Below, piece after piece: positions 8,831-18,717 of a stretch of 64,000 nucleotides of DNA (position 1 is the first letter of the stretch; every line of letters starts with the position of its first letter). The translations under genes and the position numbers were made by a program. Below the pieces are notes generated by a model, which was not told the origin of the DNA, did no database searches, and worked only from the letters and a program-made list of their open reading frames with translations. Origin of the DNA: Gammaproteobacteria bacterium UBA2965 (GTDB lineage Bacteria > Pseudomonadota > Gammaproteobacteria > Pseudomonadales > Azotimanducaceae); contig DEBD01000037.1 of NCBI GenBank assembly GCA_002348385.1, positions 129,467 to 193,466 of the forward strand, read 5' to 3'.

Positions 8831-9661
8831 ATGCGAATCGGCGTATCCCTCCCTGTCCGGGAGATGCAGAACGACCTCACAGCCATCCGCGACTTCGCGC
8901 AATCCGCCGAAGCACTCGGTTACACGCACCTGCGGGTCCCGGAACAGATCATCCGGCCCGGTAACGGCCACCTGTTCGAACCCATCACCATGATGACCTA
9001 CATAGCCGCCATCACGCAGACAATCGAGCTGGTGCCATCGGTGGTGATCCTGCCCGCACGGCAGACGGCTTTGCTGGCAAAACAGATCGCCTCGCTGGAC
9101 GTGCTGTCCGGCGGCAGGGTGCGACTGGGCATCGGCGTGGGCGGCAGCGAGGAGGAGTACACAGCGCAAGGCCAGGATTTTCATACGCGCGGCGCGCGCT
9201 GCAACGAGCAGATGGCCCTGCTGAAACTCTTGTGGACCCAGGAAACCGTGGATTTCCAAGGCAAGTGGGACACCATCCAGGGGGCAGGGCTGAATCCCCT
9301 GCCCATCCAGCAACCCATCCCGTTGTGGATCGGTGCGCGTTCCGTGCCTGGCCCATCGGTGATCAACCGCATCGGCACACTGGCCAACGGCTGGTTCGTA
9401 CTGTGCTCTCCCGAAGAGTTTCCCGAAGTAAGCGGCGCAATCGGCCAAGCGGCGCAATCGGCCGGCCGAAATCCGAAAGACATCGGCACGGAAGCAGGCG
9501 TTGCGGTGGTAGGTCCCCGAGAGGCCGAGTGGCAGGACCGAGTGCGTGGCTGGCAGCAGATCGGGCTCACCCACCTGTGCCTGAGAACTCTAGGCGGCGA
9601 TCTCACGCCCCAGCAGCACCTCGACAAGCTGGCGGAAGTGGTCGAGCAAATTCCCAGATAA
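8831..9661 (+). CDS. Luciferase-like monooxygenase (LLM class flavin/F420-dependent oxidoreductase)
   Basis: LDVLSGGRVRLGIGVGG signature, TIM-barrel LLM N-terminus MRIGVSLP. Confidence 0.9.
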   Translation: MRIGVSLPVREMQNDLTAIRDFAQSAEALGYTHLRVPEQIIRPGNGHLFEPITMMTYIAAITQTIELVPSVVILPARQTALLAKQIASLDVLSGGRVRLGIGVGGSEEEYTAQGQDFHTRGARCNEQMALLKLLWTQETVDFQGKWDTIQGAGLNPLPIQQPIPLWIGARSVPGPSVINRIGTLANGWFVLCSPEEFPEVSGAIGQAAQSAGRNPKDIGTEAGVAVVGPREAEWQDRVRGWQQIGLTHLCLRTLGGDLTPQQHLDKLAEVVEQIPR

Positions 9662-9699
9662 CCAGCAGACGCCCCTACCGAGGCGTTGGCGCCGGAAAT

Positions 9700-10383
9700 C
9701 TAACGCTGTATCCACCCGCCAGCGAACGGAATCGCTTGGCCTACGAAAAAATCGCTCTCGTCAGAGGCCAGAAACAGCGCAAAGCGCGCATCTTCTTCTG
9801 CCGTGGCCAGCCGACCCAGCGGTACCTGGCGGCGCAGGGAGTTCTGGAACGACTCCTTCTCACGCAACTCAGGGGGATAGTAAACCGGATTTTCCACGTA
9901 GTTCTGAGCGATCAGGTTCACCTGGATGTTGTGCGGCGCCACCTCCACCCCGAGGCTCTGAACGTAACCCACCTGAGCCGCCCGCGCCGCACTGTAGGCC
10001 GCCACGGTGCGCAAACCTTTAAGCGCAACGGCGCTGCCATACACCACGATCTTGCCCTGTCCCCGCTCGATCATCTGCGGCAGCACCGCGCGGCACAGCC
10101 GATGCAGCGGGTGCACCATGGTGTCGAAAGACTGCTGCCACCTGGCGTCATCCAATTCCACGGCCTCGGTTCCGGAATGATTGGGACCCGCAAGATTGGC
10201 CACGAGAATATCAACGCGACCCGAGGCCGACACTAACTCCTCGCACGCGGCGGATCGGGTCAGGTCACTGGTGTCGGCGATGACCTCCGCACCTTGCGCC
10301 GAGAACAATTCCTGAGTGGCCGGGCCCATGTAGTCATCGGCCTGAGTCAAGAGCACCCGCTTGCCTTCCAGTCGTCGTGTCAC
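9700..10383 (-). CDS. Halohydrin dehalogenase-like SDR-superfamily protein
   Basis: T-x4-Y-x-G (TQADDYMG) replaces the Gly-rich NAD motif. S-x12-Y-x3-R (SAVALKGLRTVAAYSAAR) has Arg in place of the SDR Lys. NYVENPVYYPPE resembles the HheC segment PNYLHSEDSPYFYP. Start set to GTG 10383, downstream of GGAAGGTGG. Confidence 0.7.
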   Translation of the reverse strand: MTRRLEGKRVLLTQADDYMGPATQELFSAQGAEVIADTSDLTRSAACEELVSASGRVDILVANLAGPNHSGTEAVELDDARWQQSFDTMVHPLHRLCRAVLPQMIERGQGKIVVYGSAVALKGLRTVAAYSAARAAQVGYVQSLGVEVAPHNIQVNLIAQNYVENPVYYPPELREKESFQNSLRRQVPLGRLATAEEDARFALFLASDESDFFVGQAIPFAGGWIQR

Positions 10384-10482
10384 CGCCGGCCCACCTTCCG
10401 TTTCGCTAACGCGTTCAGCAGGATAATGAACTCGCAGGCGGGGTGCTATGCTCGCTGGTGCCCTGTGCGTCACCGTGGGGGT

Positions 10483-10506
10483 GGCACCCATTCACCAATG
10501 GGTGCC
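10483..10506. promoter_or_regulatory. Perfect 10-bp inverted repeat with a 4-nt spacer
   Basis: GGCACCCATT-cacc-AATGGGTGCC, between the crotonase stop (10588) and the HHDH-like start (10383). No U-tract on either strand. Confidence 0.4.
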
Positions 10507-10587
10507 GAAGATGACAATAACCGGGCTAGCCGCGCGCTAATCCATGCGGCTTCGCGCACGAACCCCGGCACTGGCGGTTTCCATAGC

Positions 10588-11418
10588 CTAGTCGAAGAAC
10601 GGAATCTTCACGCCAGCCTCTTTCATGGCGTCTGCACGCATCCGCTCGAACGAAGATGCATGCCCCACGTGCTGCAGGTTGAAGGCCGCCTGCTGGGCAG
10701 TCCAGAAACCTTGCGCATCCTGGGTCTGGTTGCAGGCCATCTTTGCCAGCTTCAGCGAGTAGCTGGGCCGCTGACCAATCTTCTGCGCCAGCTCAAGCGT
10801 GAAGTCGCCCAGTTCGTCCTTCGGCACGACGTGATTCACCATGCCCAGGTTATAGGCCTCCTGAGCGCTGACCGGGTCACCGGTGAACAGCATCTCTTTC
10901 GCTTTGCGCAGGCCCAGTTCCCAGGGATGGGCGAACCACTCCACACCGTTCACGCCAAAGTTGACGGTCAGATCGATGAACGAAGCCTCTTCGCTGGCGA
11001 CGATGAGATCGCACACCCACATGAGCATGAGCCCGCCGGCAATGGTCTTGCCATGCACCTGCGCGATAGTGGGCTTGGGTAGCGTCTGCCAGCGACGGCA
11101 CATGTTGAGATACACCTCTTCTTCGTACGCCATTAAGCCTTCCGAGCCCGGCTTGCCGATGCCGCCGGAAATGCCAACGCGCTCCGGCACGTAGTCGTCA
11201 GAGCCGGGCTTCATATCATGGCCAGACGAGAAGTGCGGCCCCTCGCCCGACAGAATGATGACCTTCACGTCATCGTCGAAAGCCGCGGCGGTGAACGCAT
11301 CGTTCAACTCATAGGTCATGCGCTGATTCTGCGCGTTACGCGCCTCCGGACGATTCAGCTTGATGTGGGCCACTCCGCCTTCAAGCACCTCATATGCGAC
11401 CGTTTGGTAATCCGTCAT
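10588..11418 (-). CDS. Enoyl-CoA hydratase/isomerase (crotonase) family protein
   Basis: LNRPEARNAQN and GEGPHFSSGHDM. Confidence 0.9.
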   Translation of the reverse strand: MTDYQTVAYEVLEGGVAHIKLNRPEARNAQNQRMTYELNDAFTAAAFDDDVKVIILSGEGPHFSSGHDMKPGSDDYVPERVGISGGIGKPGSEGLMAYEEEVYLNMCRRWQTLPKPTIAQVHGKTIAGGLMLMWVCDLIVASEEASFIDLTVNFGVNGVEWFAHPWELGLRKAKEMLFTGDPVSAQEAYNLGMVNHVVPKDELGDFTLELAQKIGQRPSYSLKLAKMACNQTQDAQGFWTAQQAAFNLQHVGHASSFERMRADAMKEAGVKIPFFD

Positions 11419-11427
11419 CGATATCCC

Positions 11428-12972
11428 CTAGCCTATGCTGCGATCTGTGGGCCAGTATGGCGCCCGCAGCTTACGTTTGTTGATCTTGCCCATGGTATTA
11501 CGGCCGATATCGGCCACGAAATCGTATGAACGCGGGCACTTATAGCCAGCGAGATGCTCGCGGCAGAACGCATCCAGATCGGCTGCATCCGGCGCTGTAG
11601 CCCCTTCTGCCAGCACGATCAGCGCTTTCAGCTCCTCGCCCATTTCCTTATTCGGCACGCCGATCACCGCACAATCCGCAATAGCGTCATGGGTCACCAG
11701 CACCTGCTCGGTTTCCGCCGGATAGATATTCACCCCGCCGGACACAACCATGTCGGAGCTGCGGTCGGTAATGAACAGATAGCCGTCGTCGTCCAGATAG
11801 CCGATCTCTCCCAAGGTAAACACGCCCGGCTGCAGGTGCGCGGCCTCAGTCTTGTCGGGAGCGTTGTGATAGATGATTCCGCGCCCTGTAGTGTCGCGGA
11901 AATAGATCTGCCCTTCCTCGCCGGCGGCCAACCGGTTGCCGTCTTCGTCGAGAATGAGGCATTCGAACGGTGGTAAGGTCTTGCCGACCGAGCCCGGGTG
12001 CTCGAGCCATTCCTCCGAACCGATGGCATTGGTGCTGCCGGCCTCGGTGGCGCCATAGGCTTCAAACAGCACCGGACCAATCCACTCGATCATCGCGCGT
12101 TTGACTTCCACCGGACAGGCGGCGCCCGTATGGCTCACCATCAGCAGGCTGGAAACGTCGTACTTGGCTCGAACGTCTTCCGGCAGTGCCAGCAGGCGTT
12201 GGAAATGAGTGGGCACCATGAGGGTGTTGGTAACGCCGTGCTGCTCGATGGCGCGCAACACGTTCTCGGCATTGAACCGCCCCAGAATCACCAGGGTCTG
12301 GCCCGCGGTCACAGCCCGCACGCTGCCCAGCGGCCCAGTGTGGTACAACGGACTCACTACCAGCGAGACGCCGCCGGCGGCAAACCGGGCGTTCTGACCG
12401 ACAATCTCGAAGTGCTCCGCCACGGTTACCCCACCGGCAAACATGGTGGGCGGGGTTTCGGTACCTTTGGGGCGGCCCGTGGTGCCCGACGTGTAATGCA
12501 GAAACGGCTTGGGGGCCATGTCTGAGGGTGGGTCCGTATCTTCTCCGCGCTCGAGGAAAGCCTCCCAGGACAAGACCCCCGAATCGTCCGGGCAGCGCCA
12601 ACCAACCACCAGGCCAACACCCGCAGCGCGAGCAGCCTCCAGCCCCACCTCGGCAGTTTCCGGCCCCACCAGCACCATGCCGGACTGGGAATCTTCGAGA
12701 ATGTACTGAACCTCTTCGGCCGTGAGGTGGAAATTCACCGGCACCGTGGAAATACCGGCCAGAATCCCCGAGAGGTGGCCCAGCACGGTTTCCGCCGCGT
12801 TTTCCGCAAAAACGGCGATACGCTGGCCCTCGCCAAGGCCCGCCCCCAACAGCGCATTGGTGGCGCGATTGAGCGTGGAGTCCAATTCGGCCCAGGTGAT
12901 TACCACCCGTTCGTCCCCAAGGGCGGTCTCATTCGGAGTCTCGGCTGCCCTTTGTGCCGTGGCTATGGTCAT
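11428..12972 (-). CDS. AMP-dependent acyl-CoA synthetase/ligase
   Basis: AMP-binding motif LHYTSGTTGRPKG. C-terminal KINKRKL. Confidence 0.9.
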   Translation of the reverse strand: MTIATAQRAAETPNETALGDERVVITWAELDSTLNRATNALLGAGLGEGQRIAVFAENAAETVLGHLSGILAGISTVPVNFHLTAEEVQYILEDSQSGMVLVGPETAEVGLEAARAAGVGLVVGWRCPDDSGVLSWEAFLERGEDTDPPSDMAPKPFLHYTSGTTGRPKGTETPPTMFAGGVTVAEHFEIVGQNARFAAGGVSLVVSPLYHTGPLGSVRAVTAGQTLVILGRFNAENVLRAIEQHGVTNTLMVPTHFQRLLALPEDVRAKYDVSSLLMVSHTGAACPVEVKRAMIEWIGPVLFEAYGATEAGSTNAIGSEEWLEHPGSVGKTLPPFECLILDEDGNRLAAGEEGQIYFRDTTGRGIIYHNAPDKTEAAHLQPGVFTLGEIGYLDDDGYLFITDRSSDMVVSGGVNIYPAETEQVLVTHDAIADCAVIGVPNKEMGEELKALIVLAEGATAPDAADLDAFCREHLAGYKCPRSYDFVADIGRNTMGKINKRKLRAPYWPTDRSIG

Positions 12973-14757: not shown

Positions 14758-14838
14758 TAGAACGAGCGCGTCCGACCCTAAAAATTGCCAACATGACCTA
14801 CGCCTGTTACGTTGGAGCGATTGCGGAGGGAGCAACTC

Positions 14839-16104
14839 ATGAGCGCAGAAACGCTAGCCGCTGGCCAATCCCCCAGCGATTTCAGCTACGTGGATCCGGA
14901 TGTCAACAGCAACCCCTGGGCATTTTTCGAATCCGTCCAGCGCGAGTGCCCCGTCTACCAGATCCCCGAGACCGGCACCTTTATCGTTACCAAGTATGAA
15001 GATCTCAGACACGTACTCCGAAACCATGAAATCTTCTCATCAACTGTGACGGCGAGCGCAACGGGAGGCGATCAGGATATCGGCCAGAAGATTATCCGGG
15101 AGGGCGGCGGCTGGGCCCCGGTCTCGACCCTGCAGCGCACGGATCCGCCTGTTCACGGTCGCTATCGCAAGCTGTTGGATCGCGTATTCACCATCAAGCG
15201 CGTGCGGGAGATGACGCCCTACATCGATCAGGTATCCAACGATCTCATCGACAGCTGGATCGATGCCGGAGAGTGCGAGTTCAACAACGATTTTGCGATG
15301 CCAATGCCGGGCATCATCATCGCCGAGCAGCTCGGGCTGGGCCGGGATGAGGTAGCGCGCTTCAAGCGTTGGGCCGACGCCATGCTGGGGGTGGGCTCGT
15401 CGGGAATGCCTACCGAAGACGACATCCGCGCCAATGCGGAAACGGAACTGGAGGCGCAACTGTATCTGGCGGAGGTTTTCGAGGACCGGCGCCAAAACCC
15501 CAAAGACGACCTGATGTCCGCTTTGGTGCACGCACACGGTGACGACGAAGAACCGCTGACCATGCAGGAACTTCAGAGCCTGATGCACCAACTCATTACG
15601 GGCGGCTTCGAGACCACCCAAAGCGCCATCGACCACGGCATGTGGACCCTGGTGCGATTTCCGGAACTGGTTACCCGCCTGCGCGAAAACGATGCGCTGA
15701 TCAAGCCGTTCATCGAAGAGGTTTTGCGCTGGGAGAGCCCGGTGCAGTTTCTCGCACGCAGGACCACACAGGATGTGGAGCTGTCAGGCACGCTGATTCC
15801 CGAGAATTCCATGGTGATGGTCGGCTACGCGCCGGCCAATCGCGATGCGGACAAGTTCGCCTGCCCTCATCAATTCGACATGGAGCGCAAGAACGTGGGC
15901 GCCCACCTGGCCTTCGGCAGTGGCGCCCATTTCTGCGTGGGTGCCTTACTGGCCCGACAGGAAATGATCTCCGCGTTCCGGTTGCTGGTATCCCGCCTGG
16001 ACAACATCCAGCTGAGCCGCCCGCTGCCAACGCCGGTGCATCACTTCAGCATGTTCTTCCAACCCATGCACGACTTCCATATCGCTTTCGATCGGGCGTC
16101 GTAA
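14839..16104 (+). CDS. Cytochrome P450
   Basis: Heme loop FGSGAHFCVGALLARQE and EVLRWESP (ExxR). Start trimmed to ATG 14839, downstream of GGAGGGAG. Confidence 0.9.
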   Translation: MSAETLAAGQSPSDFSYVDPDVNSNPWAFFESVQRECPVYQIPETGTFIVTKYEDLRHVLRNHEIFSSTVTASATGGDQDIGQKIIREGGGWAPVSTLQRTDPPVHGRYRKLLDRVFTIKRVREMTPYIDQVSNDLIDSWIDAGECEFNNDFAMPMPGIIIAEQLGLGRDEVARFKRWADAMLGVGSSGMPTEDDIRANAETELEAQLYLAEVFEDRRQNPKDDLMSALVHAHGDDEEPLTMQELQSLMHQLITGGFETTQSAIDHGMWTLVRFPELVTRLRENDALIKPFIEEVLRWESPVQFLARRTTQDVELSGTLIPENSMVMVGYAPANRDADKFACPHQFDMERKNVGAHLAFGSGAHFCVGALLARQEMISAFRLLVSRLDNIQLSRPLPTPVHHFSMFFQPMHDFHIAFDRAS

Positions 16105-16131: not shown

Positions 16132-17133
16132 TCACACCGACTTCAAGCGGGGAGCCACCTCGGTAAACAGGCGTTCCAGGCTAGGCGCCATCTGCTCCGC
16201 CCGGAGCCCGGGCGGCACGGCCATAGTAACGATATCTGTTATTCCGAACTCGGCGATGAAAGTGCGCAGCTGCGCCACGCAGCTGTCTACGTCGCCCACC
16301 ACCCAGGTCTGAGGTACGGGATCGCCATCGCCAAACCCCTCACCGCTCTCATCAAAAAACCGCTGATACAGCCGCATGCGGTACCGCTCTGCCGCACGCA
16401 CCACGGGCCAGTCTGCCTCCTTGTCATCGGTAACTAGAACGCTCCGGATGATTCCCACGCGGTGATCAGACGGCGTACGACCCTGAGCACGCACCGCCGC
16501 CACCCATGGATCGAACGACTTGGCCCTCGCCCCCTGAGGAAGAAAGTGTGTACCGTAGCCGGCAGCCCGCAGCGCACCCGGTTCTGACATGGCCGCTATC
16601 CACAAGGGCGGTCCGCCCTCCTGGACGTAGCTGGGCGTGATCTGCACGTCCTCCAATTGGTAGCGCTTACCCTGATAACTGAATCGCTCACCGGTAAAAC
16701 AATGCTGAAGCACCTCAATACCCTCGTTCATGAGGGACACACGCCGGCTTGCCGGTAGGCCGAAGCCCCGGAACTCGTGGGGCGCATAGCCCATCCCCAC
16801 GCCCAGCTCCACGCGCCCGCCCGAGAGGTTATCGAGCACGGCCAGATCCTCCGCCAGGCGTACCGGGTGATTGAACGGCATCAGACAGATGTCGGTGCCA
16901 AAGCGCACCCGTTCGGTCACCGCGGCCATGGCACCAGCCACTGGCACCCAGCTCGGCAGGTAAGCGTCTTCCACAAAGTGATGCTCAGTAAACCAGACCA
17001 GGTCGGCTCCGATGGCATCTAACCAGCGAACCTGCTCCAGCACCTCATCGTACAACTGCCGGTGGCTCACGCCGGAGTCCGGAGGGTTACGAAAGTCGTA
17101 ACACACTCCCATTCGAAGCTCATGCCCATTCAC
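16132..17133 (-). CDS. Luciferase-like monooxygenase (LLM class flavin-dependent oxidoreductase)
   Basis: LDNLSGGRVELGVGMGY. GTG start 7 nt after AAGGAG. Confidence 0.9.
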   Translation of the reverse strand: MNGHELRMGVCYDFRNPPDSGVSHRQLYDEVLEQVRWLDAIGADLVWFTEHHFVEDAYLPSWVPVAGAMAAVTERVRFGTDICLMPFNHPVRLAEDLAVLDNLSGGRVELGVGMGYAPHEFRGFGLPASRRVSLMNEGIEVLQHCFTGERFSYQGKRYQLEDVQITPSYVQEGGPPLWIAAMSEPGALRAAGYGTHFLPQGARAKSFDPWVAAVRAQGRTPSDHRVGIIRSVLVTDDKEADWPVVRAAERYRMRLYQRFFDESGEGFGDGDPVPQTWVVGDVDSCVAQLRTFIAEFGITDIVTMAVPPGLRAEQMAPSLERLFTEVAPRLKSV

Positions 17134-17289: not shown

Positions 17290-18717
17290 ATGGCCAAGAT
17301 CGAGCGCGACCTGCTGGAGTGGCCCGAGCGCACCGAGAGGTCGTTTCCAACACCCGCGTTTATTCCGCGGGTGGGCAACGTTGACCTCGGCCTAGATCGG
17401 CTAGACGGCGAGCGCTACTACTCGCCAGAGTTCATGCAGGCCGAGTGGGACAAGGTGTGGACGAAAACCTGGCAGCTGGCGGCGCGCGTCGACGAGTTCT
17501 CCGAACCCGGCGCTTTCTACGTGCACGAACTCGGAAAGGAGTCGTTCCTCTTCGTCAGAGGCGACGACGACGAGATTCGCGGCTTCTACAATTTGTGCCA
17601 GCACAGGGGCAACGTGCTGTGCCAGGCCGATACCGGGGTGCTCGACACCTTTACTTGCCCTTTCCACGGCTGGCAGTGGAACAACGATGGAACACTCAAA
17701 CGCGCGGCAGGAGCCGAACTGTTCCGCCAGTTCGACAACGGCATTCCCACCGAAGAGCTTGGCTTGCCGGCGGTGAAAGTGGACACCTGGGGCGGCTGGT
17801 TGTGGTTCAACATGGACCTGGAAGCAATTCCGGTAAAGGACTACCTTGGAGAAGCGGGTCGACAGCTCGAAGTGTACGGGTTTGAGGGCTGGCACCTGAT
17901 CAACTACCAGACGTTCGAGTGGAACGGCAACTGGAAGCACGCGTGGGATGCGTTCAACGAGAGCTATCACTTCGCGGAACTGCACCCGGACATGATTGAA
18001 TTCGGCGAAGGGCACGACATTCCAATCGAACTGCTCGGCATCCACTCAAGGATGCTCAACTTCAATCGTACGGTGAGCCAGGTTGTCGAAGATCGGGACA
18101 CCATGACGGACCTGCGCGCACACATGATGCTCAGAGCTCAAGAAGGCTGGCGGGACAAAGAGACCGCTTCTTTCAGCGGCAAGGCAAAAGACGTGCACCT
18201 CGAGGAAATTCGCCACCGTCGCTCCATCGAAGAAGACACCTACCTGCCTTACAAGCAGATGAATGACGAGCAATTGGTGCACCAGTACCACTACAGCTTC
18301 TTTCCCGGTGCCACGATGACACAGACCCCGGAAGGGGGCGCAGTCTTTCGCTACCGACCGCACGCTACCGACCCGAACATTTGCTACTACGACTTCTTCA
18401 TCCTGGCCCACCTTCCGCCCGGCATACCAAAGATAGAAAGGCCCCCACACCGCGTGCATCGTCACGTGGATGGCATCGACTATGCCGCGGCATTCGGAAA
18501 CACCTTCGACCCGATCCTGGCCAACGTGCTGCGACAGGACGGCTCCAACATGACTACCATGCAGGCAGGCGTTAAGTCGGATGCCTTCAAGGGTATGATC
18601 CTTTGCGATCAGGAGCTGCGGATCCGGCACTTTCACATGATGATCGACGAGTTCATCGCCGGCAGCATAACCACCGACAGCCTGCCGCCCGGTGATGCAT
18701 ATCTGCTAAAGGACTGA
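17290..18717 (+). CDS. Rieske [2Fe-2S] oxygenase, alpha subunit
   Basis: CQHRG...CPFHGWQW. Paralogous to 55763-57115. Confidence 0.9.
   Translation: MAKIERDLLEWPERTERSFPTPAFIPRVGNVDLGLDRLDGERYYSPEFMQAEWDKVWTKTWQLAARVDEFSEPGAFYVHELGKESFLFVRGDDDEIRGFYNLCQHRGNVLCQADTGVLDTFTCPFHGWQWNNDGTLKRAAGAELFRQFDNGIPTEELGLPAVKVDTWGGWLWFNMDLEAIPVKDYLGEAGRQLEVYGFEGWHLINYQTFEWNGNWKHAWDAFNESYHFAELHPDMIEFGEGHDIPIELLGIHSRMLNFNRTVSQVVEDRDTMTDLRAHMMLRAQEGWRDKETASFSGKAKDVHLEEIRHRRSIEEDTYLPYKQMNDEQLVHQYHYSFFPGATMTQTPEGGAVFRYRPHATDPNICYYDFFILAHLPPGIPKIERPPHRVHRHVDGIDYAAAFGNTFDPILANVLRQDGSNMTTMQAGVKSDAFKGMILCDQELRIRHFHMMIDEFIAGSITTDSLPPGDAYLLKD

Follow-up and report, generated by a model that had tools for sequence, protein, structure and literature searches.

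Halohydrin dehalogenases (HHDHs) are valued biocatalysts for the preparation of chiral epoxides, β-substituted alcohols and, more recently, oxetanes. The motif pair T-X4-F/Y-X-G and S-X12-Y-X3-R separates these enzymes from the short-chain dehydrogenases (SDRs), which harbor T-G/A-X3-G/A-X-G and S-X10-14-Y-X3-K (PMC4989007, PMC11976700). The HHDH pair retrieved 37 HHDH genes, and all 19 of those tested gave active enzymes (PMC4989007). In HheD8, mutation of S117, Y130 or R134 abolishes activity, with all ten triad mutants inactive (PMC11782660), and the general HHDH mechanism, including its reversibility and the acceptance of small anions, has been summarized (PMC4989007).

We analyzed a gene in a 64,000-nucleotide stretch of contig DEBD01000037.1 from Gammaproteobacteria bacterium UBA2965, hereafter the window, which on its sequence and a modeled structure very probably encodes a cofactor-free B-subtype HHDH, a halohydrin hydrogen-halide lyase on the short-chain dehydrogenase fold. 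HheB from Corynebacterium sp. N-1074 (4zd6, 5b12) is likewise 227 residues long and harbors both motifs with a Tyr in motif 1; the two proteins differ in 43% of their residues and in the halide-site loop, which reads H-W-T in HheB and N-Y-V in the window protein, and their hosts are an actinobacterium and a marine gammaproteobacterium, respectively. HheD2 (gamma proteobacterium HTCC2207, 7b73) and HheD8 (Thauera aminoaromatica S2, 8xxb), structures identified in PMC9629495 and PMC11782660, share with the window HHDH both motifs and a short chain without the β2-β3 insert, and the S117/Y130/R134 numbering is identical in HheD8; the motif-1 aromatic residue is Phe in HheD2 and HheD8, whereas it is Tyr in the window HHDH. 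HheC from Agrobacterium radiobacter AD1 (1pwx/1zmt), the mechanistic reference, has the same triad, motif 1 and an N-Y-[LV] halide-site loop, but is longer (254 residues), with a β2-β3 segment and a Trp249 C-terminal extension that the window HHDH lacks; the HheC gene lies beside an epoxide hydrolase gene, unlike the one studied here. Finally, five B-type HHDHs from marine metagenomes, HheB3 to HheB7, are collected in Table S1 of PMC4989007, where activity papers are cited for all five. Under GenBank entries EBL02020, EBP61646, ECR06649, EDB56284 and EDD65701, they correspond to the window HHDH in subtype and habitat. Their source papers are reportedly Schallmey 2014 and Koopmeiners 2016. HheB3 to HheB7 and the window HHDH are probably members of one marine branch, and the five metagenomic enzymes may be near-orthologues of the window HHDH.

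Motifs and active-site residues

The features of the locus are collected in Table 1. Regular-expression matching locates TQADDYMG (residues 13-20), S-AVALKGLRTVAA-Y-SAA-R (117-134) and IAQNYVENPVYYPPE (158-172), and neither the Gly-rich dinucleotide motif TGxxxGxG nor the lysine of YxxxK was found in the window HHDH by such matching or by alignment. The original prediction had described just this replacement of the Gly-rich motif by a T-x4-Y-x-G element, the presence of S-x12-Y-x3-R with Arg for the SDR Lys, and a third segment resembling the halide-site region of HheC; the motif criteria on which it drew agree with those in the literature (PMC4989007, PMC11976700).

Table 1. Positions of features in the window and of epoxide hydrolase genes elsewhere in the same genome
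Feature	Position	Strand	Remarks
B-type HHDH, coding sequence (predicted)	9700-10383	(-)	227 aa; GTG start 10383-10381; TAG stop 9702-9700
Motif 1, T13-Q-A-D-D-Y18-M-G20 (T-x4-F/Y-x-G)	10324-10347	(-)	replaces SDR Gly-rich TGxxxGxG
Motif 2, S117-x12-Y130-x3-R134	9982-10035	(-)	Ser-Tyr-Arg triad; R134 in the SDR Lys column
Loop I158 to E172, IAQNYVENPVYYPPE	9868-9912	(-)	aligns with HheC halide-site loop IGPNYLHSEDSPYFYPTE
Shine-Dalgarno-like GGAAGGTGG	10391-10399	(-)	ends 7 nt 5' of the HHDH GTG; read from sequence
Upstream extension of the HHDH open frame (rejected)	10384-10491	(-)	36 codons, from ATG 10491
Gap between ECH and HHDH	10384-10587		204 nt
Enoyl-CoA hydratase (ECH)	10588-11418	same as HHDH	upstream
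Acyl-CoA ligase (ACS)	11428-12972	same as HHDH	upstream
Luciferase-like oxidoreductase (LLM)	8831-9661	converges on HHDH	downstream
Two Rieske ring-hydroxylating alpha subunits, P450 and two luciferase-like oxidoreductases	685-2043, 8831-9661, 14812-16104, 16132-17133, 17290-18717		within about 19 kb
Four EHN-type (microsomal-like) epoxide hydrolase genes, own genome (G000)	C29:6482-6799, C19:74520-74831, C5:250846-251157, C35:143250-143561		none adjacent to HHDH

These readings hold up in a MAFFT alignment of the window HHDH with eight ordinary SDRs and four HHDH structures. Q14 and Y18 occupy the two Gly columns of the SDR TGxxxGxG motif, and R134 shares a column with the Lys of all eight SDRs and the Arg of HheB, HheC, HheD2 and HheD8, so that the residue at the catalytic position is Arg rather than Lys in a proper alignment as well; the alignment outcome that the original prediction had named as a refutation, Lys at this position, is not observed. 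The alignment further reveals that 29 residues between β2 and β3 are missing in the window HHDH, HheB, HheD2 and HheD8 and kept in the SDRs and HheC, and that N161-Y162-V163 aligns with N-Y-L in the HheC loop IGPNYLHSEDSPYFYPTE. We take the loop comprising residues 158-172 to be the putative halide-binding site on the basis of what is known of the HheC structure.

The motif combination is specific to this gene within its own genome (3.34 Mb in 48 contigs), where both HHDH motifs with neither SDR motif occur only in the window ORF among 74 SDR-like ORFs; the Gly-rich motif and S-x10-14-Y-x3-K are found together in 48 of these 74. A homologue search covering 1.8 billion cluster representatives returned near matches with both HHDH motifs, followed down the ranking by a clean switch to the Gly-rich motif and Lys in distant SDRs. 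Both HHDH motifs were scored in 118 of the 120 closest homologues, with one of the two exceptions (P0097) harboring an N-terminal extension that puts motif 1 beyond the first 60 residues scanned, and in all 20 of the more distant D/E-like homologues from other families. In a set of 26 homologues sharing 71-86% identity with the window HHDH, the triad residues S117, Y130 and R134 are invariant, as are T13, D17 and G20 of motif 1, residues 156-165, Y168 and P170; Y18 of motif 1 varies.

By homology to HheB, HheC and HheD8, Ser117 and Tyr130 would hydrogen-bond the substrate hydroxyl, with Arg134, which replaces the SDR lysine, lowering the pKa of Tyr130 such that the latter could abstract the hydroxyl proton. 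The resulting alkoxide would displace the vicinal halide intramolecularly to form an epoxide, and the leaving halide would be received by a pocket that takes the place of the NAD(P) site of SDRs; motif 1 (T13...Y18.G20) and loop residues 158-170 would line this pocket. In the reverse direction, the epoxide would be opened with halide, azide, cyanide, nitrite or similar anions. The alignments show that the pocket differs from that of HheB, with S70 in place of F71, L124 in place of Q125 and N161-Y162 in place of H-W. F71 and Q125 are known to steer the selectivity of HheB; given these differences, substrate range and enantioselectivity are not transferable from HheB to the window HHDH, which adds a B-type sequence with distinct pocket residues and is thereby a candidate for screening.

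Homology, phylogeny and predicted fold

A phmmer search of the PDB returned HHDHs as the top four matches, with HheB (4zd6) first at E 6e-79 and 57% identical without gaps across residues 3-225, followed by an engineered HheB variant (5b12, E 6e-78), HheD2 (7b73, E 2e-71, 52% identity) and HheD8-M3 (8xxb, E 4e-70, 51% identity); the next match reaches only E 4e-31. The identity to HheC is 30%, and that to ordinary SDRs about 30%. In a maximum-likelihood tree (IQ-TREE, LG+C20+F+G4) of 54 rows, in which HheB, HheC, HheD2 and HheD8 serve as HHDH references, all HHDH-motif proteins split from the SDRs at 100/98. The window HHDH, its close relatives and HheB form a single 13-row clade with 98/95 support, HheD2 and HheD8 are found in a separate D-type clade, and HheC groups with 6a41 in a third. 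A phylogeny, which the original prediction had proposed as a check, places the protein with HheB, and since this clade is distinct from the D-type and HheC clades, the subtype, which had been left open, is B as judged from the tree.

An AlphaFold2 model built with 26 homologues is of moderate confidence (pLDDT 78.8, pTM 0.82); its confidence is low for the C-terminus and for two active-site loops, 118-123 and 161-164. With this model as query, the top nine Foldseek matches in the PDB are chains of HheB, HheD2 and HheD8 (TM 0.80-0.85, E 1e-20 to 1e-23), among which HheB is the best match (TM 0.83-0.85); SDRs come next at E 1e-15, with E-values weaker by roughly five or more orders of magnitude.

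Public annotation presents the protein differently, as an ordinary NAD(P)(H)-dependent SDR. Pfam matches the window HHDH only to adh_short_C2 (1e-35) and adh_short (5e-27), no HHDH-specific family came up for it in Pfam or NCBIfam, and the source names of its homologues are all of the SDR type (“SDR family oxidoreductase,” “NAD(P)-dependent dehydrogenase” and “2-keto-3-deoxy-L-fuconate dehydrogenase”). Against this assignment stand the absent Gly-rich motif and the Lys-to-Arg exchange in a proper alignment, the 29-residue deletion between β2 and β3, which removes part of a region kept by SDRs, the NCBIfam SDR models, all of which fall below cut-off (best, 121 bits versus a cut-off of 312), and an identity of 57% to the cofactor-free HheB compared with about 30% to any SDR. 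We consider an ordinary SDR extremely improbable on these grounds. The generic names are explained by the fact that Pfam sees only adh_short and adh_short_C2 and that no NCBIfam model reaches its cut-off, and the B-type HHDH clade appears to be systematically misannotated as generic SDR. The assignment as an HHDH rather than an NAD(P)-dependent SDR, advanced from the motifs in the original prediction, is therefore upheld by the motif pair itself, by the identity to HheB, by membership in the HheB clade and by fold matches led by HHDHs. For the window protein, we infer from sequence HHDH catalysis, a lack of NAD(P)H binding and a tetrameric state.

Start codon and distribution

The HHDH open frame on the minus strand extends from ATG 10491 to position 9700, corresponding to 263 residues, and encodes 227 residues when read from GTG 10383. 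The GTG had been chosen in the original prediction over a listed reading frame said to be 36 codons longer, a difference that is exact for a start at ATG 10491. An identical 227-residue protein is present in public collections (NCBI, ENA, Logan, JGI, Tara), and the 263-residue form was not found in public protein collections. Nearly all of the 120 closest homologues (the best 120 of 2,933 clusters) are 227 residues long. Of 92 related loci, 57 have an ATG or GTG codon opposite residue 1, usually behind a GGAGG-like sequence, and several loci harbor an in-frame stop 1-16 codons 5' of the aligned start without an alternative start; the open frame 5' of HHDH in relatives ranges from 0 to 69 codons and is broken by stops. 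GTG 10383 is thus supported as the likely start by homologue length, by the exact 227-residue record, by the aligned starts in related loci and by GGAAGGTGG located 7 nt upstream. ATG 10491 is rejected in view of the absent 263-residue form, the 227-residue homologues and the stops in the upstream frames of relatives.

The window HHDH matches 2,933 clusters (90% identity) at E 1e-20 or better, the best 120 of which are 76-100% identical and derive mostly from marine metagenomes; when clusters are formed at 50%, no more than 74 representatives score E 1e-30. Relatives are encoded by 321 genomes among the GTDB species representatives. Copies in the best 80 of these 321 genomes are 71-82% identical, and almost all of these genomes are marine Pseudomonadales MAGs (HTCC2089/“Azotimanducaceae,” K189A clade); over 80 species-level genomes retain an intact, conserved gene. 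Within the family of the window organism, 12 of 24 sampled relatives encode an HHDH: eight harbor a copy of 73-78% identity and four more a second HHDH type of about 50% identity. An order-wide scan identified some HHDH in 26 of 301 genomes, and all copies reaching 73% identity belonged to the window's own family. As far as these homologues tell, the window HHDH family is narrow in sequence space, rare globally and common in this marine lineage. The earlier description of a rare family is accordingly accurate on the global scale and does not apply to the bacterial family of the window, where half of the sampled relatives harbor an HHDH.

B-type HHDHs are thus common, not rare, in one family of marine Pseudomonadales, and because they are common in this marine group the find is an ordinary one: the identity call is correct, and on sequence the window HHDH is a further member of a known and already mined B subtype. 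These results leave the current understanding of the HHDH family unchanged.

The second HHDH type is found at loci L016-L019, in sister genera (G024, G005, G012, G015), and harbors both motifs. These sequences form their own well-supported clade outside of the B and D clades in the tree and may represent the E type, which we understand to be known from IMCC3088 and marine metagenomes. Copies of the B-type gene with 75-78% identity also occur in a MAG labeled Nitrosopumilus sp. (L023) and in one labeled Deltaproteobacteria (L095), labels for which binning contamination is a more likely explanation than gene transfer.

Gene neighborhood and natural role

The window HHDH gene follows the ACS and ECH genes on the same strand, and an aldo/keto reductase (AKR) gene downstream converges on it, as does the LLM gene. 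Further out in the window are a GST, a second AKR, a P450, another LLM, a Rieske oxygenase and a second GST. A promoter and terminator scan of positions 9500-10800 returned no promoter-like site, no site of either kind in the ECH-HHDH gap and two terminator-like sites inside the HHDH coding sequence, which is the level expected by chance. A conserved operon, either with ACS and ECH or with the downstream LLM and AKR, was considered and rejected, as no window neighbor recurs beside HHDH in 91 related loci. Arrangements across these loci are very diverse; in the commonest, HHDH is preceded by genes for a branched-chain amino-acid ABC transporter or malate synthase and followed, in variable combination, by those for an HpaB-family protein, an M48 peptidase, glyoxalase I, a GST and an RND efflux pair. 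No epoxide hydrolase or other dehalogenase gene adjoins HHDH in the window, and this, together with the unconserved neighborhood, means that the context lends no independent support to a haloalcohol pathway. Hints from gene context to the natural role of B-type HHDHs are weak and inconsistent.

One reading of this context is that the protein has the HHDH fold and triad and catalyzes a natural reaction without halohydrins, with dehalogenation a laboratory side activity; epoxides or larger cyclic ethers might be opened or formed with a non-halide anion, or the enzyme might use a CoA-linked substrate from the upstream acyl-CoA ligase and enoyl-CoA hydratase. Pairing of an HHDH gene with an epoxide hydrolase gene in an operon is rare, only two HHDH genes being known to lie beside one, and other physiological functions have been considered possible (PMC4989007); HheD8 both forms and opens oxetanes (PMC11782660). 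The position of HHDH behind ACS and ECH, with no terminator-like site in the intervening gap, favors such a role, as does an HpaB-family (4-hydroxyphenylacetate 3-hydroxylase-like) gene directly downstream of HHDH in 25 related loci. However, none of the 91 related loci shares the ACS-ECH context of the window, the neighborhoods occur in many arrangements, the halide-site loop is invariant among homologues, and in one relative (L094) the gene immediately behind HHDH encodes an EHN-type epoxide hydrolase, the classical partner enzyme, in agreement with the classical halohydrin to epoxide to diol route. A role without halohydrins strikes us as very unlikely.

Of 77 B-type loci, 51 have a GST gene within 6 kb of HHDH, and these represent at least three arrangements; a rate of about 6% is expected from the GST density in the window's own genome. 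Many B-type loci (L020-L099, e.g., L021:8001-14742) consist of HHDH, glyoxalase I (GloA), GST, an RND membrane-fusion protein (MFP) and an RND pump, all on one strand. Such an arrangement raises the idea that the B-type HHDH of this marine family is part of a glutathione-linked electrophile defense rather than of a catabolic halohydrin to epoxide to diol route. HHDH would convert natural bromo- and chlorohydrins to epoxides, or the reverse, the neighboring GSTs would conjugate the epoxides, and the products could be exported via the adjacent RND pump; if true, this would explain why HHDH genes rarely adjoin epoxide hydrolase genes. Among D/E-like loci from other families, only 2 of 20 have a GST within 6 kb, a background level for which the GST association was set aside as functional evidence, and we read the signal mostly as inherited lineage synteny. 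A literature search for the HHDH-GST link found no paper joining all terms. We regard a role in defense as very unlikely.

The genome of the window organism harbors four EHN-type (microsomal-like) epoxide hydrolase genes (Table 1), the nearest of which is about 111 kb from HHDH on the same contig. EHN-type genes are found in only 1 of 14 control genomes, and the four copies suggest broad epoxide handling by this organism. In L094 (L094:8001-9951; Pseudomonadales MAG chromosome OY761542.1), the B-type HHDH, which shares 71% identity with the window HHDH, is separated by about 135 nt from a downstream epoxide hydrolase gene of the same strand encoding a 377-residue protein with EHN and alpha/beta-hydrolase regions (Pfam EHN, 1.5e-42). 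Finally, about 19 kb of the window contains, in addition to the oxygenase and oxidoreductase genes listed in Table 1, two AKRs, two GSTs, a CoA-transferase and an MFS transporter, and looks like an oxygenase-rich catabolic or xenobiotic neighborhood.
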